Below, piece after piece: positions 2,720-38,646 of a DNA stretch of 64,000 nt; positions within the stretch are counted from its first letter, which is position 1, and the number at the start of each line of letters is the position of its first letter. Position numbers and translations under genes: made by a program. The stretch is from an uncultured Rhodospirillales bacterium. GTDB taxonomy: Bacteria; Pseudomonadota; Alphaproteobacteria; RF32; CAG-239. The notes beneath the pieces were generated by a model. It did not search any database, was not told where the DNA came from, and worked only from the letters and a program-made list of their open reading frames with translations. The DNA lies in NCBI GenBank assembly GCA_902761715.1, contig CACWLK010000001.1, positions 10,899 to 74,898 on the forward strand, read 5' to 3'.

Positions 2720-3406
2720 TTACCCCCTAAAACCGATTGCCACCAAATATTCTTCAGGTGAAGTCTTGCGACTTGCATCCGGTTTAAAATGAGCCACCTT
2801 GGCAAAATTTTTCTTTATTTCTTTCAAAAATTCGCCTTCAGCACCGCCCTTAAAAACTTTAGCAATAAAAATTCCGCCTTCCGCCAAAACATCTTTAGCA
2901 AAATCATACGCCAATTCCACCAAAGCAATTGTCCGTAAATGATCGGTCTGCTGATGTCCGGTTGTATTTGCCGCCATATCACTCATTACAATATCGGCCT
3001 TGCCGTTCAAAAGAGCTTTTAATTTATCGGCAGCATCATCTGTTGTAAAATCCTGCTGTATTAAGGTTGCCCCTTCAATCGGTTCCGTCGGCAAAATATC
3101 AAGTCCGACCACCTGCCCCGTTCCTTTATTGCGTTGCACCGCAATCTGCGTCCAACCGCCCGGTGCACACCCTAAGTCCACAATGGTCTTGCCTTTTCCC
3201 AAAAATTTAAACTTTTCATCAAGCTGGATTAACTTAAAAGCCGCACGAGAACGATAGCCTTGGCTTTTAGCTTCAGCGACATACGGATCATTCAGTTGTC
3301 TCAACAACCATTGGTTTGACGACTTTTTTCGATATTTTGAAGTTTTTACCTTAACCGCCAAACCTCTTTTTGCCATAATTGAATTTGCCGTTTTAGTTTG
3401 TGCCAT
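2720..3406 (-). CDS. rlmE: 23S rRNA U2552 2'-O-methyltransferase RlmE (FtsJ)
   Basis: Motifs DLGCAPGGWTQ and IVMSDMAANTTGH, at the typical FtsJ length of 228 aa. Confidence 0.85.
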   Translation of the reverse strand: MAQTKTANSIMAKRGLAVKVKTSKYRKKSSNQWLLRQLNDPYVAEAKSQGYRSRAAFKLIQLDEKFKFLGKGKTIVDLGCAPGGWTQIAVQRNKGTGQVVGLDILPTEPIEGATLIQQDFTTDDAADKLKALLNGKADIVMSDMAANTTGHQQTDHLRTIALVELAYDFAKDVLAEGGIFIAKVFKGGAEGEFLKEIKKNFAKVAHFKPDASRKTSPEEYLVAIGFRG

Positions 3407-4391: not shown

Positions 4392-5382
4392 GATTATGCA
4401 TCATATCAAGCAGCATTCCTTCACGAATTCCTCTATCCGCAACCGTAATTTCCGATACCGGCCAAAAAGAACAAATTCCCTCAATAATCGCACATCCGGC
4501 AATTGTCAAATCAGCTTTTAGTGGACCGATACAGGGGTGTTTTTTACGTCCCTCTGTTCCCATGCGTCTTATTCGAGTAATAGAATGTTCCAAATCTTGT
4601 TTAGTAATCGAAATTCCGTCAACCGCAGAACGATTATAACGTGTCAAATTCAGCTGAATTGCCCCCAAAACCGTTACCGTTCCCGATGTTCCTATAACTT
4701 GAATTTCCTGGTTTTGAATGGCTTCATAAATATGGTATTTTGCCTCAAAATCTTCTAACAATTTGTGAGTGCGTTCAACAATTGTATCATAGGCCAAATT
4801 AGTCATATCTTTGTTTGGAAAAGCCTCTGATACCGTAACCACCCCATACGGCAAAGACACATATCCCTCAATAAAAGTCTTGCCCGTATTGGTAACTCTT
4901 GCCAACGAAATCTCGGTTGATCCGCCACCGATATCAAAAACCATAACTCTTTTCAAATTACGGTTCAGTAGTGGTACACAGCCAACCACAGCGAGTCTTG
5001 CTTCTTCTTGCGACGAAATAATTTCAATATTCAGCCCCGTTTGCTTTTTTACTTCCGCCAAAAAATCCTTGCAGTTATCGGCACGTCTGCAGGCTGCAGT
5101 AGCCACAAACCTTGACCTGTATATCGGAGAATATTCATTGATTACTTCCGAACAGATTTTCAGCGCCCGCACAGTTCTTCTGATTGCATCTCTGCTCAAA
5201 CGATTTTCGTTGATGATACCTTCACCCAAGCGGGTAATACGTGAAAATGTTTCAACAATTCTAAAAGACGTTGGCGTCGGAGTAGCAATAACCAATCGGC
5301 AAGAATTTGTTCCCAAATCTATTGCTGCATAGGTTCGGACATTATCTTCCGTTTTTCTAAATTTATTATACTTTTGCATCAT
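4306..5382 (-). CDS. Ppx/GppA-family phosphatase, short form (paralog 1)
   Basis: AIDLGTNSCRLVIA, VFDIGGGSTEIS and ADRGIREGML motifs, followed by a basic C-terminal tail (GRRHNFYRRNKRRDGREG). Confidence 0.8.
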   Translation of the reverse strand: MMQKYNKFRKTEDNVRTYAAIDLGTNSCRLVIATPTPTSFRIVETFSRITRLGEGIINENRLSRDAIRRTVRALKICSEVINEYSPIYRSRFVATAACRRADNCKDFLAEVKKQTGLNIEIISSQEEARLAVVGCVPLLNRNLKRVMVFDIGGGSTEISLARVTNTGKTFIEGYVSLPYGVVTVSEAFPNKDMTNLAYDTIVERTHKLLEDFEAKYHIYEAIQNQEIQVIGTSGTVTVLGAIQLNLTRYNRSAVDGISITKQDLEHSITRIRRMGTEGRKKHPCIGPLKADLTIAGCAIIEGICSFWPVSEITVADRGIREGMLLDMMHNRDTKGRRHNFYRRNKRRDGREGFKSGSH

Positions 5383-13355: not shown

Positions 13356-14453
13356 CTATTTTGAAGTATTTCTTCTCAAAAATTCTTTTCTACATTTGTC
13401 ATAAACATCATCATTTGTTTCAAGTAACAAAATAGGTTTTAATGTACCGTATTGAAAAAAATGCTCCAATGATGAAGGCAGATTGTATATTTTTTCAACA
13501 TAATATTCAAAACTATTTCTAATTTGATAGTATATTATATCTTGATGATAATTTGTATTAAGATAATCTATACTCTTTCCTTTATCAGAAAGACTATCCC
13601 CAAATTTTACCACATTTATATCCTCAAAATCATCTTTATAATAAATCCAACAATACTCTGGTTGCACAATGAAATACCTACCATCATCAATATGACAACA
13701 ATACAATTCCATTAAAATGGTTTCATGGTATTTAAGATAAAGATTATCTTTACAAGTGATGCCAATAGACGTACTCCAATCATAAGTTCCTATATCTTGT
13801 ATATGATGAAATTTTATTGTAAATTCAGGAAAATCACTATAGTAATACACAGAATCTCCATCTATAGTGATAGACTGCCATTTTTCTGTATCCTGAATAT
13901 ATATAGATAATCTATCGAGGGGATTTAATGTTAAGCCAAAACGCTCTTGCCACATTTGAGCAATTTGATATTCTGAAGCCGTATTATTAATAGGCGTATT
14001 TACAGCACCATCTCTGGTATATATAACTCCAGCTCTAATAATTCTTTCTTTATTTTCTTTTCCAATAACTTTATCTTTTAATAAAAAATAAGGTTTATTT
14101 CTCATGTTTTTGATTATAATGACATCAACGCATCCTTCTTTTGTTTTTAATGATCGGATAAACGTTGTTGGTTTGATATTAAAATTCGAGTTTTGTATTA
14201 AATTGTGAATATTTTCTTCTGATTTTCGATTTGCATCATTTGATACATCTTTTATTTTCTTTGTTTTGTTCTCAATCCCAATTATTAAATACTTATCAGA
14301 ATCAGTACAAGAATTTGCCATACATAAAATATCATAAATTAACTCACCTGCATTGTGATACCATTCTTGTTTAAAGTCTAAATAGTCAGATTCTTCATGC
14401 GTTAAAAGACTATATAAATTTTCATCATTTGTGTATTGAGAATCATTTGTCAT
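13356..14453 (-). CDS. Schlafen/AlbA_2-domain protein with unassigned C-terminal half
   Basis: The N-terminus EESDYLDFKQEW...ANSCTDSDKYLIIGIENKT resembles the AlbA_2 (divergent AAA, Schlafen-type) fold. The ATG overlaps the upstream stop as ATGA. The gene is very AT-rich. Confidence 0.6.
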   Translation of the reverse strand: MTNDSQYTNDENLYSLLTHEESDYLDFKQEWYHNAGELIYDILCMANSCTDSDKYLIIGIENKTKKIKDVSNDANRKSEENIHNLIQNSNFNIKPTTFIRSLKTKEGCVDVIIIKNMRNKPYFLLKDKVIGKENKERIIRAGVIYTRDGAVNTPINNTASEYQIAQMWQERFGLTLNPLDRLSIYIQDTEKWQSITIDGDSVYYYSDFPEFTIKFHHIQDIGTYDWSTSIGITCKDNLYLKYHETILMELYCCHIDDGRYFIVQPEYCWIYYKDDFEDINVVKFGDSLSDKGKSIDYLNTNYHQDIIYYQIRNSFEYYVEKIYNLPSSLEHFFQYGTLKPILLLETNDDVYDKCRKEFLRRNTSK

Positions 14454-17400
14454 TCTACTCCTGCCTCATCAATTTGTTGCATGAGTTGGTTGGTTAGATA
14501 TAGAGCATTGATAATTTTTGCATAATGTTTAATATCATCAAAAGAAAGTTCCTTGTCTTTGCGGTCTTTGAGCCATTTTTGCGCCGGTTGGTAACCACCG
14601 ATATAAAAGTTCCAAGCGACTTCCGGAACGTTATCAAAATATTGCGTATCGTTGATATATACTTTACCTTCCGCAAAAACCAGTTTTGTTACAATGTTAT
14701 CGCCGCTTACCGGATAGCCGATGGCTAATGTATTCAGTTTATCGCTCTCAAGTAGATGAATCTTACGGATTTGCGAACCTAAATCAACCAATTTCCAGAA
14801 TTTTGCTTTATCTGCTGGGTAAGGCACTTTCGGAAAATCAATTTTTAAGAACTCTTTATAGGTTTCACGATATTTGGGTGAATGTAACACGGCATAAATG
14901 TAATCTAATACATCAATCGGAGCAAAAGTTTCCGGTTCTTCCGTTTTTTCTTCGGTAAACTTCAATTTTAACCCATCAGCAAACTTTTGAATAATTTTGC
15001 CATCAAAATTAGGATGCCGTGAATTATCTAAATCTTCATAGACATAAAGAGGAAAACCATAGCTAATTTCGCTTGTTTTGTTTGAAACTATTGAGGATTC
15101 AAAGCAATTATCACAAATAAAGACATGATGATATTCAGGAAAGGCCTTAAATTGTTTACACAACAGTAATCCTAAATTATCTCTATTGAGAAAATGTTTC
15201 ATAACTGCTTCACGTGGGCGTTCAATATAGGTGGTATCATAATAAACATATTTGTTATCAAATGGACGATATGTAACTGACTGTATTTTACTACTATCAG
15301 CCTCAATATTATAGTAAGATGCGACAGAAGATGAAAGTTCATCAACTGTTTCTTTTACAAGTATACTGTCTTTTGCCGTAACAATTCCAACATTATTTAA
15401 TTTAAATAATTCCGTAATACCAAAACCTTTATCATATTTCTTGGATAGTCCAAAGTCTTTCTTTACAAAGAAATAATATGGTGCTTGATGTTCCAATTTA
15501 TTGAAATCTATACCATTCAAGCTGTGTTCTGCCAAAAACTCGTACTTATTTTCTCTTTTACCATAAAGGTCACAATGATAGACCTCAGCAAGCTGTCCTT
15601 TTCTTTTGGCATTTGTTTTGATAAACAAATTGATGGAAACACCTTGCTGTATATCAAATACATTCTCATCTTTTGAGCCATCGGGACAAGTTTCTTTCTT
15701 TTTGGCGTTACCGTGTAAATCCAAAATATAGATTTTATCAAAAGTATTTAATAAATGCCAACGCATTCCTCTGAAAGTCGGATTATCTAAGAAACTATGA
15801 TTGTTAATATAAGCTAAAATTCCTGTATTGTTTTTTTCAATGAATTGTTCGGCATAGCGGATAAATTTAACATAGTCATCATTAATCCACTTAGGGTTCT
15901 TTTCTTGTAATTTTCCTCCCGTTGGCTCTTGCTTATAAACATCTATCAGATTTGTTATCCATTCACCTTTATTTGAACTTTCGCCACTATACGGTGGATT
16001 TCCTAATACAACCATTACCGGAACATCACGTTTAACTTCATTAGCCTCTTCTGCTTCTTGGGATAGCCAACTGGCGAACAAAGTTCCAGAGTCTGGGTGT
16101 GGTTCTTCTAAACTATTTGTCAGATAAACTTTCAAGCGGTCGTTTTGTGTTGCTTTATAACCGGTTTCTTTCAAAATCAAATCTAGCTTCAAATGTGCCA
16201 TGGCATAAGATGCCATTAAAATCTCAAAACCATGTAATCTCGGTAGTAAATGTTGTTCTACATAGCTTGACCACATTCCCTGCATTGGTATAAATTTCTC
16301 ATGAATTTGGCGAATAACTTCGGCTAAAAATGTTCCGGTTCCGGTGGCAGGGTCTAATATTTGAACACGATGTACTTCTTTTTCTTCTTTTTTAAATTTA
16401 TCCTTACTTTCATTTCGGAGAGTAATTTTTGTTTTTGATGTATCTGCTAATCCATCAGCCAAACCAAATTCATTCTTTAATATGTCGTCAACAGCCCGCA
16501 CAATAAAATTAACTACCGGTTGCGGTGTATACCAAACTCCGCGAGATTTACGAAGCTTTGGGTCATATTCGCTCAAAAAGGTTTCATAAAAGTGAATTAT
16601 CGGGTCTTGCGTTTTGGTTGCTTTACCAAAATCTTTCAAAATATCGTGCAAATTAACAGCAACAAAAACATCGGCTAAATCGTCAACAATCCATTTAATA
16701 CGGTCATCAAGTGTCGGACCTGCGATATAACTGAATAGATTTCGCAAAAAAGGATTAGACTTCGGTATGCACTCACAAGCCTCTTGTCTGGAAAAATTTT
16801 CTAATGATGTATCATTCAAACGTCCGGCGAACATACCATAGGCAATAGTTTGTGCGTAAACATCTGCAAATTCTTCTTTAGATATATCACTAATCAATAT
16901 CTTTTGAAATGCAGTCATTTGGTCTTGAAGGGTTCGGTTATCATAACTGTTATCATTACTATTTAAGGCATTTTTTATAACATCAGCCAACAATCTGGCT
17001 TTTCCTGCCATCATTTTAGCCAACTTTGAAGCAGAATGTATTGTCTGTCCTCTATAAGCACAGAAATTAACAATTAAGTCATTAAATTCTTGAAAACGCT
17101 CTGTATTGGCGACAACTTTGCCGTTTTCTATATGACCAATACGAACTGTTGTAACTTTTTCTCCATCCCGATAAAAACGAAATTCAAGATAGTTCGTAAT
17201 AATAAGATTGTTTAAACTGTTACGATAACGGTCAAATTGCTCTTTATGATTTTTATTATCTAAATCATCATCAAGGTCTTTAGCTTCAATATATCCAAGT
17301 GGAATATTATTTTTGGTAATAACATAATCAGGTGCTCCACACGAGATACGAGCAGGCTCATTAGTCGCAATAATGCCTGTTACGAGCTTTTCTATTAAGG

Positions 17401-17488
17401 TTTGTAAGTCTCCGCGATATGAATGTTCCCGCGATATTCCGGTTTTATATCTTTTGTTAATTTCGTTAATATAGTCCGCTATAGGCAT
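14450..17488 (-). CDS. single-chain Type IIG-like restriction-modification enzyme (nuclease + gamma-class N6-adenine methylase + TRD)
   Basis: D54-X13-E68-A-K70 (GAPDYVITKNNIPLGYIEAKD), then ILDPATGTGTFL (motif I), then LGNPPYSG (motif IV). The C-terminal region resembles the Type ISP/YeeA-like specificity end. Confidence 0.8.
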   Translation of the reverse strand: MPIADYINEINKRYKTGISREHSYRGDLQTLIEKLVTGIIATNEPARISCGAPDYVITKNNIPLGYIEAKDLDDDLDNKNHKEQFDRYRNSLNNLIITNYLEFRFYRDGEKVTTVRIGHIENGKVVANTERFQEFNDLIVNFCAYRGQTIHSASKLAKMMAGKARLLADVIKNALNSNDNSYDNRTLQDQMTAFQKILISDISKEEFADVYAQTIAYGMFAGRLNDTSLENFSRQEACECIPKSNPFLRNLFSYIAGPTLDDRIKWIVDDLADVFVAVNLHDILKDFGKATKTQDPIIHFYETFLSEYDPKLRKSRGVWYTPQPVVNFIVRAVDDILKNEFGLADGLADTSKTKITLRNESKDKFKKEEKEVHRVQILDPATGTGTFLAEVIRQIHEKFIPMQGMWSSYVEQHLLPRLHGFEILMASYAMAHLKLDLILKETGYKATQNDRLKVYLTNSLEEPHPDSGTLFASWLSQEAEEANEVKRDVPVMVVLGNPPYSGESSNKGEWITNLIDVYKQEPTGGKLQEKNPKWINDDYVKFIRYAEQFIEKNNTGILAYINNHSFLDNPTFRGMRWHLLNTFDKIYILDLHGNAKKKETCPDGSKDENVFDIQQGVSINLFIKTNAKRKGQLAEVYHCDLYGKRENKYEFLAEHSLNGIDFNKLEHQAPYYFFVKKDFGLSKKYDKGFGITELFKLNNVGIVTAKDSILVKETVDELSSSVASYYNIEADSSKIQSVTYRPFDNKYVYYDTTYIERPREAVMKHFLNRDNLGLLLCKQFKAFPEYHHVFICDNCFESSIVSNKTSEISYGFPLYVYEDLDNSRHPNFDGKIIQKFADGLKLKFTEEKTEEPETFAPIDVLDYIYAVLHSPKYRETYKEFLKIDFPKVPYPADKAKFWKLVDLGSQIRKIHLLESDKLNTLAIGYPVSGDNIVTKLVFAEGKVYINDTQYFDNVPEVAWNFYIGGYQPAQKWLKDRKDKELSFDDIKHYAKIINALYLTNQLMQQIDEAGVE

Positions 17489-17598: not shown

Positions 17599-17629
17599 TT
17601 GACTTAGACCCTACTCTAAAGTTTAGACT
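17599..17629 (+). promoter_or_regulatory. candidate MerR-style promoter (TTGACT, 19 bp, TAGACT) of the flavoprotein operon
   Basis: -35 box at 17599-17604 and -10 box at 17624-17629. The 19-bp spacer carries the imperfect dyad ACTTAGAC...CTCTAAAGT. A GCGCAT-N5-ATGCGC dyad follows at 17642-17658. Confidence 0.4.
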
Positions 17630-17712
17630 ACTCCCATAATAGCGCATCATATATGCGCAATCTCGTTTTGCACATCAAAACCGGAGCTTTTTAACTATCA
17701 AAGGATAAAACC

Positions 17713-18309
17713 ATGAAAAAGATTATATTAGCCCTGACCATCTTAACCATAATCTTGCTCTCTTGGGCAGTCAAAGCAGAGGAAAAAAACATGAAAACAT
17801 TGATTGTATATTTTTCACGCACCGGCGAACAATACAGCGTCGGCAACATCACTAAAGGCAACACCGCAATCGTTGCTGAAATGATTGCTCGTGAAACCAA
17901 CGGCGATTTGTTTGAAGTCAAACTCCAATCTGATACCTACCCCGCCGGTTATACAGAACTCACACAGGTCGCAAAACAGGAAAAATCTCAAAACACCCGC
18001 CCCGCCATCATTGGCGATGTCGAAAACTTTGACGACTATGACGTCGTTTTCGTCGGCTCTCCTGTTTGGTGGGCAGATATGCCTATGGCACTCTATACTT
18101 TTATTGAAAAACATGACTGGTCGGGCAAAACCGTCGTTCCGTTCGTAACCCACGAAGGCAGCGGTTTATCCGAGATTCCCGCCAACCTCAAAAAAGCCAC
18201 CGGTGCCAAAACCCTGAGCGGATTGGCAATTTACGGACACGAGGCACAAAACTCTCCCGATAAGGTACAAACCAAGGTTTCTGTTTGGCTCAAAGAATTA
18301 GGTTTTTAA
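17713..18309 (+). CDS. flavodoxin-fold protein with signal-peptide-like N-terminus
   Basis: MKKIILALTILTIILLSWAVKA is followed by LIVYFSRTGEQY and VVFVGSPVWW. An internal SD+ATG sits at 17791. Confidence 0.75.
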   Translation: MKKIILALTILTIILLSWAVKAEEKNMKTLIVYFSRTGEQYSVGNITKGNTAIVAEMIARETNGDLFEVKLQSDTYPAGYTELTQVAKQEKSQNTRPAIIGDVENFDDYDVVFVGSPVWWADMPMALYTFIEKHDWSGKTVVPFVTHEGSGLSEIPANLKKATGAKTLSGLAIYGHEAQNSPDKVQTKVSVWLKELGF

Positions 18310-18324
18310 CAAAGGAAAATTATC

Positions 18325-19173
18325 ATGACACAAACTTATTTAACCTTAAATAACGGCGAAAAAATGCCCCAATTCGGCTTGGGTGTATATTTGGTTCCCG
18401 ATGGAGAAGAAACCGTAAACGCCTGCCTCAACGCCCTAAAACTCGGCTACCGTCATATAGATACCGCCCACGCCTACCAAAACGAGCGTGGCGTCGGCAC
18501 AGCTTTGAAACAAAGTGGCCTAAAACGTAGCGAAGTCTGGATTACCACCAAACTTTGGCCGACCGAATACGGCGAAGGTCAAACCCTTGAAGCCATCGAT
18601 AAAATGCTTGACCGCCTGCAGACCGACTATATTGACCTTCTGCTGCTTCACCAACAGGTCGGCGACTATATCGGCGCATGGAAAGATATGGAAAAAGCCG
18701 TCAAACTCGGCAAAGTCAAATCTATCGGAATTTCTAATTTTAAGGAAAATCTTGACGACTTGCTTAATCACGCCACCATCAAACCCGCCGCAATTCAGGT
18801 TGAATGCCACCCTTATTTTCCTCAGCATGAACTAAAAAAACGTATGGCCGAATACGGTACAATCATTGAAAGCTGGTATCCGATCGGTCACGGTGACCCC
18901 AAATTGATTAATGAGCCTGTCTTTACAAAACTTGCTCAAAAATATGGCAAAACTAATGTTCAAATCATTCTGCGTTGGCATATTCAAGAGGGAAATTCTG
19001 TCTTCCCCAAAACTACCAATCTTGAACATATGCGCGACAATTTTGATATTTTTGATTTTGAACTGACTGCCGATGAAATGCGCGAAATCGCCAAACTCGA
19101 CAACGGACAGCGTTATTACACCGCCTCCCTTACCGAACAACAACGTTTTACTCAATGGAAACCTGCAGATTAG
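18325..19173 (+). CDS. aldo/keto reductase
   Basis: GYRHIDTAHAYQNE, DLLLLHQ and SVFPKTTNLEHMRDN motifs, at the typical AKR length of 282 aa. Confidence 0.85.
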   Translation: MTQTYLTLNNGEKMPQFGLGVYLVPDGEETVNACLNALKLGYRHIDTAHAYQNERGVGTALKQSGLKRSEVWITTKLWPTEYGEGQTLEAIDKMLDRLQTDYIDLLLLHQQVGDYIGAWKDMEKAVKLGKVKSIGISNFKENLDDLLNHATIKPAAIQVECHPYFPQHELKKRMAEYGTIIESWYPIGHGDPKLINEPVFTKLAQKYGKTNVQIILRWHIQEGNSVFPKTTNLEHMRDNFDIFDFELTADEMREIAKLDNGQRYYTASLTEQQRFTQWKPAD

Positions 19174-19185
19174 GAGAAAATTATA

Positions 19186-19821
19186 ATGAAAGTCTTGCTT
19201 GTTAATGGTTCTCCGCACAAAAACGGATGTACCTTTACTGCTTTGAATGAAATCGCTCAAACTCTTAAAACTGAAGGTATCGATTCTGAAATTTATCACA
19301 TCGGCACCAAACCTATATCCGGCTGTCTCGGTTGCGGAAGTTGTAGCAAACTCGGTCATTGCGTAATTGATGACAAAGTCAACGAGTTTCTTGAGCTTGC
19401 TAAAAACGCTGATGCTTTTATTTTCGGCTCTCCCGTACATTATGCCTCTGCCGGTGGTGCAATAACATCTTTTCTAGACCGAGCTTTCTTTTCAGCATTT
19501 ATGTCCGGTAACGACGCAATTTTCCGCCACAAACCGGGAGCCGCCGTTGCCAGTGCTCGTCGCTCGGGAACTACCGCAACTCTTGATCAACTCAATAAAT
19601 ATTTCACCATATCCGAAATGCCCGTAATATCCGGCAGATATTGGAATATGGTACACGGGCATACACCCGATGAAGTCCGACAAGACCTTGAGGGCCTGCA
19701 AAATATGCGCATATTAGCCCGCAATATGGCTTGGCACCTAAAATGTCAGGAAGCTGGTAAAAAAGCCGGTGTGCCTATGCCCGCAGAAGAACAAATTGTG
19801 TTTACCAACTTTATCCGATAG
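19186..19821 (+). CDS. NAD(P)H-dependent FMN reductase / iron-sulfur flavoprotein-like
   Basis: MKVLLVNGSPHKNGCT, the Cys cluster CLGCGSCSKLGHC, and GSPVHYAS. Confidence 0.7.
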   Translation: MKVLLVNGSPHKNGCTFTALNEIAQTLKTEGIDSEIYHIGTKPISGCLGCGSCSKLGHCVIDDKVNEFLELAKNADAFIFGSPVHYASAGGAITSFLDRAFFSAFMSGNDAIFRHKPGAAVASARRSGTTATLDQLNKYFTISEMPVISGRYWNMVHGHTPDEVRQDLEGLQNMRILARNMAWHLKCQEAGKKAGVPMPAEEQIVFTNFIR

Positions 19822-19830
19822 GAGAAATAC

Positions 19831-20898
19831 ATGAAAAAAATAATTTTATCACTGATTGCAATAACCGTATTAGCAGGAGGTTATTATTTTATGAAAAAAG
19901 ACACCCCCACAGCAGAAAGCAAATCAACCGACACCGCCGAAAACACTCCTCAATGGGACAAAGTGTTCCCTCAAAGTGATAAAGTTGAAACTCACCGCGT
20001 ATCCTTCCAAAACCGTTTCGGTATCGTTTTGGTCGGCAACATCTATCTTCCTAAAGACCGTGATAACAAAAAATTTCCGGCCATTGCCGTCTCCGGCCCG
20101 TTCGGTGCTGTTAAAGAACAGGCTTCAGGTTTGTATGCCCAAACACTGGCCGAACGCGGTTTTGTAACTTTGGCCTTTGACCCGTCATTTACCGGTGAAT
20201 CCGGCGGCGATGTTCGTAACGTCGCTTCTCCTGATATCAATACCGAAGACTTTAGCGCCGCCGTCGATTTCTTAAGCACTCTGTCTTATGTTGACAAAGA
20301 CAAAATCGGAATTATCGGGATTTGCGGTTTTGGTGGTTTTGGTCTTAATGCTGCCGCTCAAGATACCCGCATTAAAGCAACCGTTACTTCTACCATGTAT
20401 GATATGACGAGAGTAAGTGCCAAAGGTTATAATGACTCAATGTCTGCAGATGACCTCTACAAACTGCGCCAAAGCTTGAACGCACAACGCACCGAAGACG
20501 CCATGAAAGGCACTTATGCCGAAGCTCCCGGCCTTCCTGATAAATTGACCGGCAACGAACCGCTGTTTGTAAAAGAATATTTCGAATATTACAAAACACC
20601 GCGCGGTTTCCACAAACGTTCGATTAACTCTAACGGACACTGGAACACCACTTCTGCTCTTTCACTGATAACTCAACCTATTTTGGCTTATAGCGACACC
20701 ATCAAAAGTGCTGTTTTAATGATTCATGGTGAAAAAGCTCACAGCCGTTATTTTTCGGAAGACGCATTCAAAAAACTCACCGGAGAAAACAAAGAGTTAT
20801 ACATTGTTCCTGATGCAAACCATGTAGATTTGTACGACAACCTGGAAAAAATCCCGTTCGATAAAATTGAAGAATTTTTCAAAACCAATCTTAAATAA
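19831..20898 (+). CDS. alpha/beta-hydrolase-fold protein with N-terminal anchor
   Basis: MKKIILSLIAITVLAGGYYF, an elbow region IGIIGICGFGG, and a C-terminal HVDLYD. An internal SD+ATG sits at 19891. Confidence 0.6.
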   Translation: MKKIILSLIAITVLAGGYYFMKKDTPTAESKSTDTAENTPQWDKVFPQSDKVETHRVSFQNRFGIVLVGNIYLPKDRDNKKFPAIAVSGPFGAVKEQASGLYAQTLAERGFVTLAFDPSFTGESGGDVRNVASPDINTEDFSAAVDFLSTLSYVDKDKIGIIGICGFGGFGLNAAAQDTRIKATVTSTMYDMTRVSAKGYNDSMSADDLYKLRQSLNAQRTEDAMKGTYAEAPGLPDKLTGNEPLFVKEYFEYYKTPRGFHKRSINSNGHWNTTSALSLITQPILAYSDTIKSAVLMIHGEKAHSRYFSEDAFKKLTGENKELYIVPDANHVDLYDNLEKIPFDKIEEFFKTNLK

Positions 20899-20907
20899 GG
20901 AACAAAC

Positions 20908-21921
20908 ATGGCAATCAGAAAAATATTACCAATACTGCTGATAGCAGTATCAATTTTTGGGGGAGAAAATACTATGGCACAGAATACTTTATCTGCCAAA
21001 CAACAATCAATTGCCGCAAGTGCTGCTTATGCCGCACTTGGTGACCAACAGGGCTTAAAAAAAGCCTTAGCCGAGGGCATAAACCAAGGTGCTTCCGTTA
21101 ACGAACTGCGTGAAGTTCTGGTTCAATCCTATGCTTACTGCGGTTTTCCGCGCAGTTTGAATGCATTGGCAACTCTAATGCAACTGGCAGAAGAAAAATC
21201 TCTTGATACCTCTGCCTCAAAATCAACCCCACTTGATAATGCACTTGCCACCGGTGCTGAAAACCAAACCAAATTGGTCGGCTCAGAAGTTAAAGGCAAA
21301 TTATTTGATTTTGCACCGGCAATTGATGAATATTTAAAATCTCACTTATTCGGCGATATTTTCTCTCGTTCCGATATCGACTGGCAAACCAGAGAACTGG
21401 CAACCGTTGCTATGCTTGCCGCTCGTGAAGGTGTAGAAAGTCAACTCAATGCTCATATTCAAATTGCCAAACATAACGGGCTGACTGATGAGCAAATAAA
21501 AGAAGTTTTATTGATTGCCTCAAAAGCTCGAGCTGAAAATATTCTGTTCGGCATGGGCGAGAAAAACCCTTACGGAAAATATTTTATCGGACAAAGCTAC
21601 CTGCAACCTATCAATAAAGAAGGTGTGCCGATGTTTAATGTAACCTTTGAGCCCAAATGCCGCAACAACTGGCATATTCACCACAAAGGCGGTCAAATTT
21701 TGATTGCCGTATCGGGACGTGGTTGGTATCAGGCTTGGGGAGAAGAAGCTCGTGAGCTTAACCCCGGCGATGTCGTAAACATTCCGCCCGAAACCAAACA
21801 CTGGCATGGTGCTGCCAAAGACAGCTGGTTTACCCACATTGCTGTTGAAATTCCAAGTGAAGGCGGCTCGACTGAGTGGCTTGAACCTGTTGCCGATGAA
21901 GAATATAACAAATTAAAATAA
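20908..21921 (+). CDS. carboxymuconolactone-decarboxylase-like + cupin fusion protein
   Basis: CMD-type helices (ELREVLVQSYAYCGFPRSLNA) are followed by a cupin (NWHIHHKGGQILIAVSGRGW...PPETKHWHGA). An internal SD+ATG sits at 20974. Confidence 0.65.
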   Translation: MAIRKILPILLIAVSIFGGENTMAQNTLSAKQQSIAASAAYAALGDQQGLKKALAEGINQGASVNELREVLVQSYAYCGFPRSLNALATLMQLAEEKSLDTSASKSTPLDNALATGAENQTKLVGSEVKGKLFDFAPAIDEYLKSHLFGDIFSRSDIDWQTRELATVAMLAAREGVESQLNAHIQIAKHNGLTDEQIKEVLLIASKARAENILFGMGEKNPYGKYFIGQSYLQPINKEGVPMFNVTFEPKCRNNWHIHHKGGQILIAVSGRGWYQAWGEEARELNPGDVVNIPPETKHWHGAAKDSWFTHIAVEIPSEGGSTEWLEPVADEEYNKLK

Positions 21922-21931
21922 GGATATAAAA

Positions 21932-22477
21932 ATGACCAAAAAAGTATTAATTATCTCATCAAGCTTGCGTGGCGGAAGCAACTCCGAAATCGTTGCTCAT
22001 GAAGTAGAACGCGGTGCCGTTGACGCCGGATTTGAGACCGAATTTATCAGCCTCAAAGACAAAGCAATCAACTTTTGCAAAGGCTGTCTTGCCTGCCAAA
22101 AAACTCTCAAATGCGTCATCAAAGATGACATGGTTGAGCTGATTCAAAAGGTTCAAAATGCAGACACTTTGGTCTTTGCCACCCCGATTTATTACTATGA
22201 AATGAGCGGTCAACTCAAAACCTTTTTGGACCGTTGCAACCCGCTGTTCTCACAAGAAAACAAATTCCGCAACGTCTATCTGCTGACCACCTCTTATGAT
22301 GCTTCGGACGAGGCATCTGATAATGCTGCCAATGGCCTCAAAGGATGGGTTGCTTGTTTTGAACAATCACGCTTTGCCGGACTTTTAGCCGGCGGCGGTG
22401 TAAATGATCCCAAAGAAGTAAGCAAACATAATGATCTGCTTCAAAAAGCTTACAATTTTGGTAAAAATTTAAAATAA
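21932..22477 (+). CDS. NAD(P)H-dependent FMN reductase family protein
   Basis: KVLIISSSLRGGSNSE, CKGCLAC and FATPIYYYEMSGQLK motifs. Confidence 0.7.
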   Translation: MTKKVLIISSSLRGGSNSEIVAHEVERGAVDAGFETEFISLKDKAINFCKGCLACQKTLKCVIKDDMVELIQKVQNADTLVFATPIYYYEMSGQLKTFLDRCNPLFSQENKFRNVYLLTTSYDASDEASDNAANGLKGWVACFEQSRFAGLLAGGGVNDPKEVSKHNDLLQKAYNFGKNLK

Positions 22478-22487
22478 GGAAAAAATA

Positions 22488-24236
22488 ATGTCTTATCTTG
22501 AACAAATTAATTCGCCTGCCGACCTCAAAAAGCTGAATATTTCGCAAATGCAGACATTGGCTTCCGAGATCCGCGATGCTATCTTAAATCGTGACAGCAC
22601 CGTCGGCGGCCACGTCGGCCCCAACCTCGGAATTGTCGAAACCGCAATTGCTCTGCACTATGTTTTCAACTCTCCGCGTGATAAAATTGTCTGGGATGTT
22701 TCGCATCAATGCTATCCGCACAAATTGTTGACCGGACGTAAAGAAGGTTTTTTGACTGTTGAAGGCATGCAAAAAATATCCGGTTACACCAATCAGGATG
22801 AAAGCGAACACGACTTTTTCAAAGTTGGTCATACCTCTACTTCCGTAAGTCTTGCCTGCGGTCTTGCCAAAGCTCGCAACCTCCGTGGAGAAAAGCACAA
22901 CGTAATCGCCGTTATCGGTGATGGTTCGCTTTCCGGCGGCGAGGCTCTTGAGGGGTTTAGCAATGCTGCCGTATTAAACAGTAACATCATAATTATCTTA
23001 AACGACAACGAGATGTCCATTGCCGAAAATCACGGCGGTCTATACACCAACCTGCGTCTTTTGCGTGAAACCAATGGCAAAGCCGAATGCAATATGTTTA
23101 AAGCCCTTGGTTTTGACTATCATTATGTAGCAGATGGCAATTCTTTGGAAGCAATGATCGATGTTTTGAACAAAACCAAAGACACCAACCGACCGACCGT
23201 AATCCATATTCACACCCTCAAAGGCAAAGGCTATGCGTTGGCTGAACAAGACAAAGAGCCGTGGCACTGGAGTGTTCCTTTCAACCTCAAAGACGGCAGC
23301 CCCAAATGGAATATGTCAGGCGAAAACTATAATGACATTACCTATGACTACCTGCTTAAAAAAATCAAAAACGATCCGACCGTCGTAGCAGTCAACGCCG
23401 GAACTCCCGGAGTTTTTGGACTCAACGCCGAAAGACGTAAAGTTTTAGGTGAACATTTTGTTGATGTCGGCATTGCCGAAGAACATGGTGTTGCTTTCAC
23501 CTCTGCTCTTGCCAAAGGCGGTTGCAAACCTATCTTTATGGTTATGAGCTCGTTCATTCAACGCACATACGACCAACTCTCGCAAGATTTGGCCTTAAAC
23601 AACAACCCCGCAGTTATATTGGTTGCCTGGGGCGGCATTTCCGGTGCTGATATGACACACCTTTGCTCGTTTGATATTTCTATGATTTCAAACATTCCTA
23701 ATTTGGTATATCTCGCACCGACCACGGTTGAAGAATATTTGGCAATGCTTGACTGGGGATTGGAACAAAACAAACATCCGGTTGTTATCCGTATGCCTAA
23801 AGAGATTGTCCATACCACAGCAAATGTAGATAAGAACTACGACAACCTCAACACCTATCAAACAGCCGCACAAGGCAAAGATGTAGCCATTATTGCCGCC
23901 GGAAGTTTCTTTGGTCTGGGACAGCAAGTGGCAGAAGAACTCAAAAAACACCATCTGACACCTACCCTGATTAACCCGCGTTATCTGACCGGTGTTGACA
24001 AATCATGCCTTGAAAAACTCAAAGCCGAACACAAACTTGTTATTACGCTTGAAGATGGCGAACTCGACGGTGGTTTTGGTGAAAAGGTCGGCAGATTTTA
24101 CGGTCCGTCCGAAATGAAGGTGTTGAACTACGGTTCATTCAAAGAGTTTACCGACCGTGCCGATTTAACTGACCTTTACAATCGTTATCACTTGACTGTT
24201 AAACAAATTGTTGATGATATTTTACAAAACATTTGA
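22488..24236 (+). CDS. 1-deoxy-D-xylulose-5-phosphate synthase-like ThDP enzyme (short paralog, 582 aa)
   Basis: GGHVGPNLGIVETAIALHYVFNSPRDKIVWDVSHQCYPHKLLTGR and GDGSLSGGEALE (ThDP motif) are colinear with DXS. Confidence 0.75.
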   Translation: MSYLEQINSPADLKKLNISQMQTLASEIRDAILNRDSTVGGHVGPNLGIVETAIALHYVFNSPRDKIVWDVSHQCYPHKLLTGRKEGFLTVEGMQKISGYTNQDESEHDFFKVGHTSTSVSLACGLAKARNLRGEKHNVIAVIGDGSLSGGEALEGFSNAAVLNSNIIIILNDNEMSIAENHGGLYTNLRLLRETNGKAECNMFKALGFDYHYVADGNSLEAMIDVLNKTKDTNRPTVIHIHTLKGKGYALAEQDKEPWHWSVPFNLKDGSPKWNMSGENYNDITYDYLLKKIKNDPTVVAVNAGTPGVFGLNAERRKVLGEHFVDVGIAEEHGVAFTSALAKGGCKPIFMVMSSFIQRTYDQLSQDLALNNNPAVILVAWGGISGADMTHLCSFDISMISNIPNLVYLAPTTVEEYLAMLDWGLEQNKHPVVIRMPKEIVHTTANVDKNYDNLNTYQTAAQGKDVAIIAAGSFFGLGQQVAEELKKHHLTPTLINPRYLTGVDKSCLEKLKAEHKLVITLEDGELDGGFGEKVGRFYGPSEMKVLNYGSFKEFTDRADLTDLYNRYHLTVKQIVDDILQNI

Positions 24237-24247
24237 GAGGTAAAAGC

Positions 24248-24808
24248 ATGAAAAATTTTTTATATTTGATTACCGCTGTTCTCACTTTTTTGAGCAATAT
24301 TAATGTACAAGCACAGGAGAATAATATGACAGATAAAAAAATATTGGTAGCATATTTTAGTGCCACCGGCACAACTGCCAAAGTTGCTGAACGTTTATCA
24401 CAGGCAATTAATGCCGATTTGTTTGAGATCAAACCGGCTCAACCCTACAGCAACGCTGACCTTGACTGGACCGACAAAAAAAGCCGCAGTTCGGTTGAAA
24501 TGGCTGACAAATCAAGCCGCCCGGCTATTGCTGACCAAGTCGCCGACATGAGTCAATACAATGTTGTATTTGTCGGTTTTCCGATTTGGTGGTATCGTGA
24601 ACCCTCAATCATTGATACTTTTATGACAAGCTATGACTTTGCCGGCAAAACCGTTATTCCGTTTGCCACATCAGGCATGAGCGGTATTGGTGATTCCGGC
24701 AAAAGCATGCAAGCCTTAGCTCCTTCTGCCAAAGTTTTGGAAGGCAAACGTTTTTCCTCCGGCGTATCAGCAGAAGAGCTGAAATCATGGGCTGAAGGAT
24801 TATTTTAA
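24248..24808 (+). CDS. flavodoxin-fold protein with signal-peptide-like N-terminus (paralog of 17713)
   Basis: MKNFLYLITAVLTFLSNINVQA is followed by ILVAYFSATGTT and VVFVGFPIWW. I placed the start at ATG 24248, behind GAGAGG. An internal SD+ATG sits at 24326. Confidence 0.75.
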   Translation: MKNFLYLITAVLTFLSNINVQAQENNMTDKKILVAYFSATGTTAKVAERLSQAINADLFEIKPAQPYSNADLDWTDKKSRSSVEMADKSSRPAIADQVADMSQYNVVFVGFPIWWYREPSIIDTFMTSYDFAGKTVIPFATSGMSGIGDSGKSMQALAPSAKVLEGKRFSSGVSAEELKSWAEGLF

Positions 24809-24826
24809 CCCACAACAAATAACTAC

Positions 24827-24855
24827 AAAAGCCGAGGCTCTCCTCGGCTTTTTTT
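24827..24855 (+). terminator. Rho-independent terminator
   Basis: GCCGAGG-CTCT-CCTCGGC hairpin followed by T7. Confidence 0.8.
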
Positions 24856-24913
24856 AATTATATTTTAAGCAAATTGGATTATTATATAATTGGTGTAATT
24901 TTAGGAATATTTA

Positions 24914-25543
24914 ATGGCTTATTGCAACTGGAGCGGAACATCAGAACTCAACACCCTGTACCACGACCATGAATGGGGTGTTCCTCTCCATGACGACCAA
25001 AAACAGTTTGAATTTTTGATGATGGAAGTCATGCAATGCGGCCTCAACTGGAATATGATGATTAATAAGCGCGAAATTTTCCGCCGCTGTTTTGATAATT
25101 TTGATTATGACCAAATTGCCGCCTATACCGACCATGACTTAAACCGGATTATGAACACTGCCGGCATGATTAAAAGTCCTCGCAAAATAAACGCCATCAT
25201 CAACAACGCCCGTTGTTTTCAAAAAATCCGTCGGGAATTCGGCAGTTTTTGCAATTATCTTTGGGCTTTTTCTGGCGGCAAAACCATTCTTTACGACCGC
25301 CACGGCGAAGGCTATATCCCTGCCAGCAACGAGCTGTCCGACCTCATCAGCAAAGACTTGAAAAAAAGAGGTTTCAAATTTCTCGGCACGGTTACTGTAT
25401 ATTCACATTTACAAGCTTGCGGCATTATCAATGACCATGGAGATGACTGCCCTCGCTATCAATACATTGTCAACAATTTTCCTACAATCAGAAAACGCCG
25501 CCGCAAAGAAAAAGGCGTCGTACATTTTGTTTCTGAATACTAG
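24914..25543 (+). CDS. tag: DNA-3-methyladenine glycosylase I
   Basis: YHDHEWGVPLHDDQKQFEFLMMEVMQCGLNW is the Tag signature. Confidence 0.85.
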   Translation: MAYCNWSGTSELNTLYHDHEWGVPLHDDQKQFEFLMMEVMQCGLNWNMMINKREIFRRCFDNFDYDQIAAYTDHDLNRIMNTAGMIKSPRKINAIINNARCFQKIRREFGSFCNYLWAFSGGKTILYDRHGEGYIPASNELSDLISKDLKKRGFKFLGTVTVYSHLQACGIINDHGDDCPRYQYIVNNFPTIRKRRRKEKGVVHFVSEY

Positions 25544-25555
25544 AAAGGAACTATC

Positions 25556-26224
25556 ATGAAAAAAGTAATCATCGTCAACGGAAGCCCACGCAAAAACTTT
25601 AATACCGCAAAGCTCTTAAAAGAAGCCGCCCGCGGTGCTGAAGAAAGCGGAGCCGAAGTTGAATTTTTCCACCTGTACGACCTCAACTATAAGGGCTGTA
25701 TAAGTTGCCTTGCCTGTAAACGTAAGGGCGTTGCCCAAAAAGGATTGTGCTTTTTCAAAGACGGACTGACACCTTTGTTAGAAAAATGTCTGAATGCCGA
25801 TGCTGTAATTGTCGGTTCTCCGGTTTATCACTCTTATCCGTCCGGCATGTTCCGCTGTTTTATGGAGCGTTTTATTTTTCCGGCACACACATATATGCTG
25901 GATCGAGTTAACGGTGGTCTCAAACGAGTTATAAACCGTACCTTGCCCGTCGGTGTCATCATGACCATGAACGCCACCAAGGAACAATATAAAAGCAACA
26001 AATATGACATTATTTTAAGAGAAAACGAAGAAAGCCTCCATGCCGTATTTGGGTACTCGGAAACTCTCTATGCATTTGATACATTCCAATACACAGACTA
26101 TGCAAAATATGATTGCGACTTGTTTGACCCCGTACACAAAGCTTTAGTCCGTGACAAACAATTTCCAATTGATATGCGCAAAGCTTACGAAATGGGCAAA
26201 CGCCTAGCCACCATGAATAACTAA
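25556..26224 (+). CDS. flavodoxin-like FMN reductase family protein
   Basis: KVIIVNGSPRKNFNT, CISCLACK and GSPVYHSY motifs. Confidence 0.7.
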   Translation: MKKVIIVNGSPRKNFNTAKLLKEAARGAEESGAEVEFFHLYDLNYKGCISCLACKRKGVAQKGLCFFKDGLTPLLEKCLNADAVIVGSPVYHSYPSGMFRCFMERFIFPAHTYMLDRVNGGLKRVINRTLPVGVIMTMNATKEQYKSNKYDIILRENEESLHAVFGYSETLYAFDTFQYTDYAKYDCDLFDPVHKALVRDKQFPIDMRKAYEMGKRLATMNN

Positions 26225-26277
26225 CTTTTAACAGGAAAACACTTTGTATTATATAACGCTGCCTGATGAGGTCAAAT

Positions 26278-26690
26278 ATGAAATTATCAAAACTGATCTT
26301 TGCCGGACTTTTACTCTTGGTACCAACAAGTTCAGCCTTTGGAGAGAATAACCAAAATATGACTATTACCGTAAACATTTATTACACCGGAGAAAACGGC
26401 AATGCCCGCAAATTTGCCGAAGAAATGGAGCAAAGCGGAACCGTTGCGGCAATTCGTGCTGAAGAAGGCAATTTAAGATATGAATATTTTTATCCCAAAA
26501 ATGATAATGAGACCGTGCTCTTGATTGATAGTTGGCAAAACCAAAAAGCTATTGATAAGCACCACGCCTCCCCAATGATGTCAAAGATTGCCGAACTCCG
26601 CAACAAATAGACTTACATATGAAAGTCGAACGCTATGTTGAGGACAAAACCGGCATTCCCGAACAAGATAAAAACTTTATCAAAAAATAA
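26278..26690 (+). pseudogene. ABM (antibiotic-biosynthesis-monooxygenase-like) protein, frameshifted near the 3' end
   Basis: The frame-1 ORF stops at TAG 26608-26610 after ...KIAELRNK. The frame starting at 26610 continues DLHMKVERYVEDKTGIPEQDKNFIKK to TAA 26688-26690, which supplies the missing last ABM strand. Confidence 0.65.
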
Positions 26691-26695
26691 TTTTT

Positions 26696-26727
26696 AAGCC
26701 GAGGTTTTATCCTCGGCTTTCTTTTTT
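26696..26727 (+). terminator. Rho-independent terminator
   Basis: GCCGAGG-TTTTAT-CCTCGGC hairpin followed by a T-run. It uses the same stem as the terminator at 24827. Confidence 0.8.
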
Positions 26728-37688: not shown

Positions 37689-37720
37689 AAAAAAGCCCCA
37701 AACTCGGGGCTTTTTTTTAA
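37687..37720. terminator. bidirectional terminator
   Basis: AGCCCC-AAACTC-GGGGCT hairpin between A8 and T8, shared by the convergent accC and 37717-38646 genes. Confidence 0.8.
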
Positions 37721-38646
37721 TATGCAACCTCAATCCTGTACGTACCATTATATTCGCCGGCAGGAGCCCCTTGAGTAACGTGTAATGTTCCGCCGACGTT
37801 TATATATGTATCTTTACTTGTCAATGACGTAATACTTGAAGCCGGAGGATTGGTAACCAAATCCACCAACAGAGAGGTTCCGCCGTTAGATATGCTTGTC
37901 TGGCTGTCAACCGTAACAGTTACCGGACGTGAACCCGATTCCTGCTTGGTAATTTGTATAATTCCGTTGTGATAAGGATACGACGCATCATTGACCACAT
38001 AAAGCGAACTCTGTCTTGTACCATCAGGATTGACCACAACATCATGCGTTGCCGTTGCCAAAAGCGTACCGAAGCTCAAATCTTGTGTACTCTGCACACT
38101 AACTGGCTGCGGATCTATAACCAAACTCACAGATAGTGTACCAGTCACATTTCCTGCACTACTTGCATTGTAACTAACACTCAGCGAACCGCTAAAATCA
38201 CCATAACCGCAGTTGGCAGGAATAGTGATTCTGCCCCCATAATTGAAATTTCCTGTTCCATAGAAACCAACATTTCGTGATGTAGGATTAACCACCATAT
38301 TATCAAATGATACACTACACCCCGAACATGTTGCGGGGGTCGTACACGCTATAGTACCAGTTGCCGTTGCATTTGCAGTAACTGTCTGTCCACTGAACAA
38401 TGTCCAAATAGTAGTATTTTGATACTGCATAATACCATTCTTCTGATCGGAACTCGTAGCAATATTGGTTTGTGTTCCGTATGTTCCATCACTGTCCAAA
38501 ACCACAATTGCTGAATTTTGCGGGTTACTCAAACGAACACTACCGAAGTTCATTGCTTGAGTCATATTAGCATTATCAGCCAGAGCGTTGTTGATTACAC
38601 TCAAAAAACACACAAGTAATGCCCAAAACACCTTCATCATCGACAA
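37717..38646 (-). CDS. secreted protein with two DUF4402/SCPU-like repeats
   Basis: Signal peptide MSMMKVFWALLVCFLSVINNALA. Two modules begin with (N/S)FG(S/T) and end with GDFSGSLSVSYN and GEYNGTYRIEVAY. Confidence 0.5.
   Translation of the reverse strand: MSMMKVFWALLVCFLSVINNALADNANMTQAMNFGSVRLSNPQNSAIVVLDSDGTYGTQTNIATSSDQKNGIMQYQNTTIWTLFSGQTVTANATATGTIACTTPATCSGCSVSFDNMVVNPTSRNVGFYGTGNFNYGGRITIPANCGYGDFSGSLSVSYNASSAGNVTGTLSVSLVIDPQPVSVQSTQDLSFGTLLATATHDVVVNPDGTRQSSLYVVNDASYPYHNGIIQITKQESGSRPVTVTVDSQTSISNGGTSLLVDLVTNPPASSITSLTSKDTYINVGGTLHVTQGAPAGEYNGTYRIEVAY

Follow-up and report, generated by a model that had tools for sequence, protein, structure and literature searches.

Internal start sites conserved at signal-peptide boundaries point to dual initiation in five genes of an alphaproteobacterial redox cluster

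Results

Five genes of one cluster carry a second candidate start at the end of a signal peptide

The DNA analysed here, hereafter the window, is a stretch of 64,000 nucleotides (nt) from an uncultured Rhodospirillales bacterium (contig CACWLK010000001.1, positions 10,899 to 74,898, forward strand). Positions 17713-26610 of the window hold eleven co-directional genes, which a terminator-like hairpin divides into two transcription units (Table 1). Five of these genes, called a to e below, begin with an M-K-K-type hydrophobic segment, at the end of which stands an in-frame ATG, itself preceded 6 to 12 nt upstream by a purine-rich Shine-Dalgarno sequence (SD). An initial annotation had drawn attention to this double-start arrangement and offered two readings of it: either each gene makes an exported and a cytoplasmic isoform by alternative initiation, or signal peptides were grafted onto formerly cytoplasmic genes. 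On direct reading, the positions it gave for the five internal ATGs and their SDs were right in every case, and the SDs that it attributed to the upstream ATGs were all located. As it had also remarked, the six remaining genes have a single start each, with neither a hydrophobic N-terminus nor a strong internal ATG and SD near the start. Genes a and d both encode Flavodoxin_4 domains (PF12682; 85 bits, E=5×10−24 for a, 226.5 bits, E=1×10−67 for d, the Pfam cut-off being 24). The exact proteins of the cluster are found in metagenome assemblies only, and their closest named homologues are entries labelled "MAG: Alphaproteobacteria bacterium", from gut and rumen.

Signal peptides were judged throughout with a crude home-made rule: the predicted ones show, by our reading of the sequence, a positive n-region, an uncharged core of at least 10 residues, and small residues at positions -3 and -1. 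Likely cleavage sites are MKK..VKA/EE for a, ..TMA/Q for c, ..VQA/QE for d and ..AFG/EN for e. The case of b is less clear, with either VLA/GG or perhaps a signal anchor instead of a cleaved peptide. None of the five has a twin-arginine motif (S/T-R-R-x-F-L-K). The internal ATG had been described as lying exactly where the hydrophobic segment ends. It does lie at or near the boundary in all five genes, but the Met of c stands inside the likely T-M-A/Q peptidase site, at position -2 (the x), and not after it, and b may be anchored.

Gene e appears to be frameshifted by one base at its 3′ end (window 26600-26692). It stops at a TAG (26608-26610), and an ATG at 26620 opens a different frame, which runs to 26690 and encodes MKVERYVEDKTGIPEQDKNFIKK. 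Full-length e homologues (P0363) are unbroken in this region (...ELRNKYDLHMKVERY...). The same shortened e product is called in another assembly (L001).

Table 1. Features of the cluster, in window coordinates. Duplex, SD duplex energy (kcal/mol); MFE, minimum free energy of the 60 nt around the internal ATG; aa, amino acids.
Feature	Coordinates	Strand	Description
Gene a, long form	17713-18309	+	198 aa; start ATG 17713; signal peptide MKKIILALTILTIILLSWAVKA, then Flavodoxin_4-like domain
Gene a, short form	candidate start 17791	+	172 aa
Aldo/keto reductase	18325-19173	+	Pfam; no signal peptide
FMN_red	19186-19821	+	Pfam; no signal peptide
Gene b, long form	19831-20898	+	355 aa; N-terminal hydrophobic segment MKKIILSLIAITVLAGGYYF, then alpha/beta hydrolase; candidate short start 19891
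Gene c, long form	20908-21921	+	337 aa; signal peptide MAIRKILPILLIAVSIFGGENTMA, then CMD + cupin; candidate short start 20974 (MAQNT..)
FMN_red	21932-22477	+	Pfam; no signal peptide
DXP-synthase-like	22488-24236	+	Pfam; no signal peptide
Gene d, long form	24248-24808	+	186 aa; signal peptide MKNFLYLITAVLTFLSNINVQA, then Flavodoxin_4 (Pfam)
Gene d, short form	candidate start 24326	+	160 aa; equivalent to PDB 3KLB
Terminator-like hairpin after d	24827-24852	+	divides the cluster into two transcription units
3-methyladenine glycosylase	24914-25543	+	second unit; Pfam; no signal peptide
FMN_red	25556-26224	+	second unit; Pfam; no signal peptide
Gene e, long form	26278-26610	+	110 aa as it stands; signal peptide MKLSKLIFAGLLLLVPTSSAFG, then ABM domain; candidate short start 26359
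Terminator-like hairpin, end of second unit	26696-26719	+	
a internal start	17779-17793	+	SD GAGGA 17779-17783; spacer 7 nt; ATG 17791-17793; duplex -6.0; MFE -5.4
b internal start	19875-19893	+	SD AGGAGG 19875-19880 (Gly-Gly, GGA GGT); spacer 10 nt; ATG 19891-19893; duplex -11.0; MFE -4.7
c internal start	20959-20976	+	SD GGGGGAG 20959-20965; spacer 8 nt; ATG 20974-20976; duplex -8.4; MFE -8.0
d internal start	24315-24328	+	SD AGGAG 24315-24319 (CAG GAG); spacer 6 nt; ATG 24326-24328; duplex -7.4; MFE -1.7
e internal start	26341-26361	+	SD GGAGAG 26341-26346; spacer 12 nt; ATG 26359-26361; duplex -6.4; MFE -4.9
a upstream SD	17701-17705	+	AAGGA; duplex -5.4
b upstream SD	19820-19824	+	AGGAG; duplex -7.3
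c upstream SD	20897-20901	+	AAGGA; duplex -6.2
d upstream SD	24235-24240	+	GAGAGG; duplex -7.1
e upstream SD	26268-26271	+	GAGG; duplex -6.3

The internal sites have strong SDs and weakly folded mRNA

The strength of an SD was scored as the duplex energy between positions -18 to -4 and the anti-SD sequence ACCUCCUUA. This canonical anti-SD was assumed, the window containing no 16S gene; its annotated starts show AGGAG-type SDs. The median energy was -5.6 kcal/mol for annotated starts and -1.5 for the 331 in-frame internal ATGs of the window, with a 5th percentile of -6.0 for the latter. Ranked among these 331, the internal ATGs of the cluster fell in the top 6.3% (a), 0.3% (b), 1.5% (c), 2.4% (d) and 3.6% (e), the SD of b being the strongest of all. 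Each internal SD was at least as strong as the upstream SD of its own gene. Most of the other strong internal matches turned out to be the true starts of over-extended open reading frames (ORFs). An ATG with an SD at the signal boundary was found in 5/5 signal-peptide genes of the cluster versus 0/9 signal-peptide genes elsewhere in the window (Fisher p=5×10−4). A control gene at 37717-38646 has a Met at the boundary (ALADNANM) and no SD (-1.5).

Folding of the mRNA was then compared over 60 nt. Around the five internal ATGs the mean MFE was -4.94, close to that of annotated starts (-4.89), versus -10.26 around other internal ATGs, -10.06 for windows placed at the same offsets in other genes, and -10.83 for the nine other signal-peptide genes. 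The weakness of folding at the five sites was significant against controls (Mann-Whitney p=7×10−4 and 5×10−4). The same-offset controls rule out that this low structure merely reflects nearness to the primary start. The SD ranks, the folding and the nine negative controls bear out the earlier opinion that five genes out of five are hard to ascribe to chance.

We also considered that a second transcript might start within the signal codons. A promoter scan of the cluster gave 22 sites for 18.4 expected, which is no excess, none of them convincing inside the signal codons, and this idea is unsupported.

In d and e the signal peptide was added upstream of an ancestral start

At least 180 related loci were collected by scanning genome and metagenome contigs and by contig look-ups. 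The matches listed in the metagenome scan with the d alignment were mostly distant Firmicute loci, which served as signal-less outgroups and not for codon statistics; for codon work, DNA of close relatives was taken from contigs encoding homologues. A search with d returned 120 homologues with 66-99% identity.

Among the matches listed, Firmicute homologues of d are devoid of a signal peptide, their first residue being the Met aligned with the internal Met of d (MSKVLVAYFS). The same is true of Firmicute homologues of e (MITVNLYY, MAITVNLYY), and in the ABM family most of 150 representatives align residue 28 of the query with their own residue 1. The solved structure PDB 3KLB matches d with E=2.3×10−52 and also begins at the aligned internal Met, so that the short form of d would be a whole domain, as in this homologue. 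Because the Firmicute homologues and 3KLB begin at that Met, we conclude from these alignments that d and e originally started at the internal ATG, and that the signal peptide was added upstream of it. A similar cytoplasmic origin is likely for a. The ancestral start of b and c could not be fixed, and the proposal that signal peptides were grafted onto cytoplasmic genes is therefore borne out for d and e only.

The signals found ahead of the retained Met differ in type between lineages, which suggests convergence. They are of the signal peptidase I (SPase-I) type in Alphaproteobacteria, of the lipoprotein type in Gastranaerophilales, Victivallales and Verrucomicrobia-like contigs, and a transmembrane-like segment in Ruminimicrobiellum. 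Twin-arginine signals precede the retained SD and ATG in a d homologue (L147) and in an FMN reductase (L173:9372-10001, MNRRDFIKG...GGEKQ-M-KILVLTGSPRKNG). In all these contexts the retained Met lies a few residues before the first beta strand.

Genes for TatA and TatC adjoin the redox clusters of some relatives (L163:12270-13236; L179:7190-8226). In a Flavodoxin_4 homologue at L182:6972-7020, the signal-like segment is very short, and a tandem ATG ATG follows GGAGGA (MKKLLTAILMGGTMMATTAEAK). Other neighbours of the cluster in relatives encode rubrerythrin, glutathione peroxidase, ferritin-like and metallo-beta-lactamase-rubredoxin proteins, TetR, MarR or LysR regulators, and sometimes TatA/TatC. 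Going by gene names, this neighbourhood suggests a response to oxidants or electrophiles.

The internal site is conserved as nucleotides

The alignment of homologues that the initial annotation had called for was carried out. In long-form homologues of d, the internal Met was kept in 113 of 115 sequences (...A-E-E-N-N-M-T-D-K-K...), with variable residues on both sides and a hydrophobic core that has turned over entirely. In three further entries the call begins at the internal Met and gives 160 residues. The SD and ATG of d are kept in the 19 diverged orthologues for which DNA was available. In low-GC lineages, GGAGG or AGGAG always stands 6-9 nt before the internal ATG even though the residues it encodes differ: the conserved SD is written as GCG GAG GAA (AEE), AAG GAG GAA (KEE), AAC GGA GGA (NGG), GCG GAG GGA (AEG) or ACA AAG GAG ACC (TKET).

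Codon choice points in the same direction. Synonymous sites are randomised in the 19 codon-aligned orthologues, the top codon reaching a share of 0.3-0.6 at four-fold sites. Yet the Glu codon within the SD is GAG in 17/17 distinct sequences, for a genome baseline of 0.22, versus 5/19, 8/19 and 2/17 (15/55 in all) at invariant Glu columns of the same genes (Fisher p=4×10−8). The p-values given here treat related homologues as independent, phylogeny not being modelled; counting six lineages as the independent units, the GAG result is about 10−4. The Ala preceding this Glu often uses the rare codon GCG (baseline 0.13).

Gly codons spell out the SD in b, c and e, and the first of them is always GGA or GGG (the baseline is 0.27 for GGA alone, GGG not being tallied). 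The motif [L/F]-G-[G/E]-x-[A/V/T]-M-A hardly varies among the roughly 87 distinct N-termini listed for c homologues, and in about one database entry out of four the protein is called from the internal Met, with 318 residues. The DNA of two of these short-called entries (L181, L182) nevertheless has a signal-peptide ORF upstream, complete with start codon and SD. Homologues of a (L005:8519, L163:4800, L181:3404) keep the Met, with SD energies of -9.5, -5.6 and -9.5. Among b homologues GGxxM(A) occurs in subclades only, the majority having a plain signal peptide and no Met. A signal peptide without the Met is also found in Bacteroidota-like ABM proteins and in Firmicute lipoprotein paralogues of d, and the d relatives L012, P0022 and P0078 lack the trait. 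Because signal-bearing homologues of the b, d and e families exist without the Met, this residue is not needed for folding or export, and it is lost where it is not selected. To judge by these comparisons, the internal start site is under purifying selection and does not merely survive.

The alternative to selection is an inert fossil, the signal having been grafted recently and the ancestral SD and ATG being left over with no present function. Such a leftover would fit with the start of Firmicute d and e homologues at that Met, with the confinement of the feature to families that evidently changed compartment, and with the existence of lineages that have lost the Met. A neutral relic is however expected to decay, as it did in those other lineages. 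Here the ATG (113/115) and GGAGG are kept in spite of saturated synonymous sites and of signal peptides that have diverged beyond recognition, the rare GAG codon is found 17 times out of 17, and the mRNA is kept unstructured. We consider it unlikely that the sites are fossils.

The feature is specific to redox-cluster families

To compare these families with other signal-peptide genes of the same genomes, 29 loci were scanned with the same signal rule, giving 552 ORFs, of which 158 were signal-like. The feature was counted when an ATG with an SD of energy -6 or below stood at the end of the signal. It was present in 36/49 homologues of a to e versus 7/107 other signal-like ORFs (p=1×10−17). 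Four of these seven belong to the related redox cluster L173 (a flavin reductase, a BD-FAE hydrolase, the Tat-type FMN reductase and a cyclophilin-like protein), and the remaining three are over-extended ORFs. The best SD energy at signal-peptide ends had a median of -8.4 in the five families versus -3.5 elsewhere (p=3×10−12). The arrangement is therefore not an ordinary background of these genomes, the outcome that the initial annotation had named as fatal to its proposal; the nine negative genes of the window agree with this.

The medians also dispose of a trivial origin, in which SD-like purine runs would be a by-product of cleavage regions rich in Ala, Gly and Glu: other signal peptides reach only -3.5, versus -8.4. 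Unrelated signal peptides that end in x-M-A (L054, L082, L172, L008) have the ATG and no SD.

An SD-like sequence could also act during elongation, by slowing ribosomes just past the signal peptide and so aiding targeting by the signal recognition particle (SRP) and Sec, with an incidental Met. The motifs do stand at codons 20-26, and Fluman and colleagues are said to have proposed, in 2014, pauses at roughly such codons in E. coli membrane proteins. A pause leaves unexplained the near-invariant ATG, its fixed spacing of 6-12 nt from the SD and the open mRNA, and some 100 other signal-peptide genes of the same genomes do without the SD. This explanation is very improbable.

Scarcely better than negligible is the chance that the site looks conserved while being unused, the mature part being replaced again and again by cytoplasmic alleles acquired horizontally, each with a fresh SD and ATG. 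The gene order and content of the clusters do vary strongly among relatives, suggesting frequent exchange, but each such event would require an in-frame, stop-free junction, and within clades the changes in SD spacing and in junction residues are gradual, as under constrained vertical descent.

Least credible of all is that the internal ATG alone is used and that the hydrophobic extension is an open frame, rarely or never translated, in an A/T-rich leader: pipelines, that of NCBI included, often call the short form, and the internal SDs at least match the upstream ones, but the extension is open in every orthologue, with an ATG (or GTG) and SD of its own, M-K-K, a hydrophobic core and an A-x-A-like end, and the persistence of these features through sequence turnover indicates that the extension is translated, and that selection acts on it as a signal peptide.

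Annotation pipelines are split over the start

L173 and L174 are two records of the same DNA, a related cluster where two gene callers assign different starts to five genes. The CMD protein is called at 341 or 319 residues, the ABM protein at 141 or 110, and the cyclophilin-like protein at 142 or 114, which corresponds in each case to the signal-peptide or the internal start (start pairs 1960/2026, 12561/12654 and 18599/18683 in L173). Hydrolase calls differ as well (284 versus 308 and 296 versus 308 residues). Pipelines choose either start at random on the same DNA (186 versus 160, 337 versus 318, 141 versus 110 residues), which makes the predicted localisation inconsistent for thousands of database entries. 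Such splits on identical DNA speak in favour of two starts.

Surroundings of the cluster

A candidate promoter lies upstream of the cluster (window 17599-17640), with TTGACT at 17599-17604 and TAGACT and CATAAT downstream, a 19-nt spacer being possible. A perfect 6-1-6 palindrome, TCTAAA-G-TTTAGA (17615-17627), is a possible operator inside the spacer, in the style of MerR/SoxR. No regulator gene adjoins the cluster in the window, where relatives have TetR, MarR or LysR genes. An Rfam scan of the window returned three tRNAs only, with no riboswitch or leader RNA near the cluster.

Directly upstream, at 14450-17488 on the minus strand, lies an intact Type ISP/MmeI-like restriction-methylase gene (1012 aa). 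It is called as two ORFs of 708 and 267 aa in L001:212-3162, and may be interrupted there or variable between samples. The GC content is 0.42-0.45 in the cluster versus 0.32-0.37 in this restriction gene. The GC skew is strongly negative, at about -0.2, over the whole window (1-64000) and weaker across the cluster, whose genes are oriented opposite to most others in the window. Elsewhere on the minus strand we noted two neighbouring, overlapping Ppx/GppA-family ORFs of 332 and 358 aa (3393-5382), which look like tandem paralogues, and a predicted lipoprotein (58140-58889) that matches no Pfam family and contains a long low-complexity region rich in Asn and Gly.

Discussion

The two readings of the initial annotation, grafting and dual isoforms, are best seen as two stages of one history, and both are supported. 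According to the scheme that we propose, the enzymes were originally cytoplasmic. Their frame would have been extended upstream into a signal peptide, and the old 5′ leader, made of the SD and an A/T-rich spacer, would now be translated as a polar linker (AEEKN, GGYYF, GGENT, QENN, GENNQN). The old SD and ATG have not decayed: to judge by the comparisons they are held by selection on nucleotides, in an mRNA kept unstructured, and this would be because the site is still used. Initiation at the first ATG would give a precursor that is exported by Sec and loses its signal peptide. Binding of the 30S subunit at the internal SD would give a product without signal that stays in the cytoplasm. Since the two mature proteins would differ by about 0-5 residues, their location would differ and not their activity. 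In c, where the Met is the middle residue of an A-x-A-type site, the cytoplasmic protein and the processed exported one would be nearly identical. Flavodoxin-like, hydrolase, CMD-cupin and ABM enzymes could act on either side of the inner membrane, and cytoplasmic flavodoxin-like copies could load flavin mononucleotide (FMN) as usual. Genes nearby suggest a role in the detoxification of oxidants or electrophiles. We regard it as probable that each of the five genes has two starts, with exported and cytoplasmic isoforms arising by dual initiation. The part of this proposal that concerns the internal start is supported by selection on the Met, the SD, the GAG codon and the open mRNA; from there we infer that two proteins are produced.

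Several points weigh against this proposal. The organism is known from metagenome assemblies only, and the isoforms are predicted from sequence. Elongating ribosomes that come from the first ATG would mask the internal site in part, and the output of this site could be small. Signal peptides in general favour a helix-breaking Gly-Gly, an A-x-A peptidase site and acidic residues past the cut, and part of the peptide pattern is so caused; this cause explains neither the codon choice nor the Met. Homologues share descent, and our p-values overstate their independence, although the main contrasts are very large, the six-lineage count still giving about 10−4. Most b homologues and some d relatives lack the trait (see above), and the rule used to recognise signal peptides is crude. 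Finally, a Sec-exported flavodoxin-like protein would have to acquire FMN outside the cytoplasm. As the initial annotation had remarked, nothing in the window provides for flavin loading outside the cytoplasm: no ApbE/Ftp-type loader was found among about 50 window ORFs scanned with Pfam, a few ORFs near 60-64 kb being left out.

A broader reading is attractive, although we hold it only tentatively and would not put it quite at even chances. The double start could be a selected localisation device operating across a whole regulon, by which single genes would supply redox and detoxification enzymes to the cytoplasm and the periplasm alike. It would be shared by gut Alphaproteobacteria, Gastranaerophilales and Elusimicrobia-like lineages, and by flavodoxin-like, FMN reductase, flavin reductase, CMD-cupin, ABM, hydrolase and cyclophilin-like enzymes. 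In its G-G-x-x-M-A form, the SD would be written in Gly codons and the start codon would encode the middle residue of the A-x-A site. The same reading suggests a general route by which a 5′ extension creates a signal peptide together with a dual-localised intermediate, which is afterwards either stabilised, as it would be here, or resolved to export only, as might be the case for most b homologues and for Bacteroidota-like ABM proteins.

If both starts are used, one gene supplies an enzyme to two compartments, which changes the reading of gene clusters that are very common in gut and rumen, and provides a simple escape from the cofactor problem of flavoproteins. Most known internal starts of bacteria are little conserved, and the present one would be a rare case of alternative initiation with strong evolutionary support. 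From the point of view of evolution, relatives display the cytoplasmic-only, dual and export-only states of one family next to one another.

The principle itself has precedents in E. coli. In-frame internal starts close to the 5′ end were proposed from Ribo-RET data for speA, bamA, ivy and yghG (Meydan et al. 2019, bioRxiv 10.1101/520783). As here, a second start a few dozen codons into the gene would yield a product without signal that is retained in the cytoplasm. The E. coli cases are single genes of one species, found by Ribo-RET and mostly with little reported conservation, whereas the present ones, predicted from sequence, involve a single cluster with five such genes and additional families in related clusters, with a site conserved at synonymous positions across several phyla. 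Moreover, the ATG lies here at or within two residues of the peptidase site, so that the whole signal would be removed and not part of it.

N-terminal proteoform pairs with differing localisation have been reviewed (2026 review, PMC13515050), among them the long and short forms of Salmonella SseL and the predicted pairs of OmpX, PagC and YdgA, and removal of the signal is listed there among the roles of bacterial N-terminal proteoforms, mostly as predictions. SseL resembles our case in that one gene has two starts, with a secretion signal on the long form only. Its signal is however for type III secretion, the Sec-type cases of the review are predicted only, and none is operon-wide or conserved. 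In eukaryotes, dual targeting by alternative starts gives mitochondrial or secretory versus cytosolic isoforms. The likeness extends to a targeting peptide that is included or skipped depending on the start codon, and to the evolutionary logic, in which a gene is extended ahead of its ancestral start (for example bioRxiv 10.1101/2025.03.27.645657). Eukaryotes achieve this by leaky scanning, whereas the mechanism here would be the independent binding of 30S subunits at the internal SD. As for the proteins themselves, the solved Flavodoxin_4 structures (PF12682; PDB 3KLB, 4J8P, 4ICI) are of the same family as a and d, but they are signal-less, single-start forms whose physiological role is not established.

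Our literature searches returned no report of an exported flavodoxin with an internal start, or of this architecture in redox clusters, and the cluster-wide version, conserved across phyla, appears unreported. It is set apart from the systems above by its extent over a five-gene cluster, the cross-phylum conservation at synonymous sites, the placement of the start at the cleavage site, and the three states visible in relatives.

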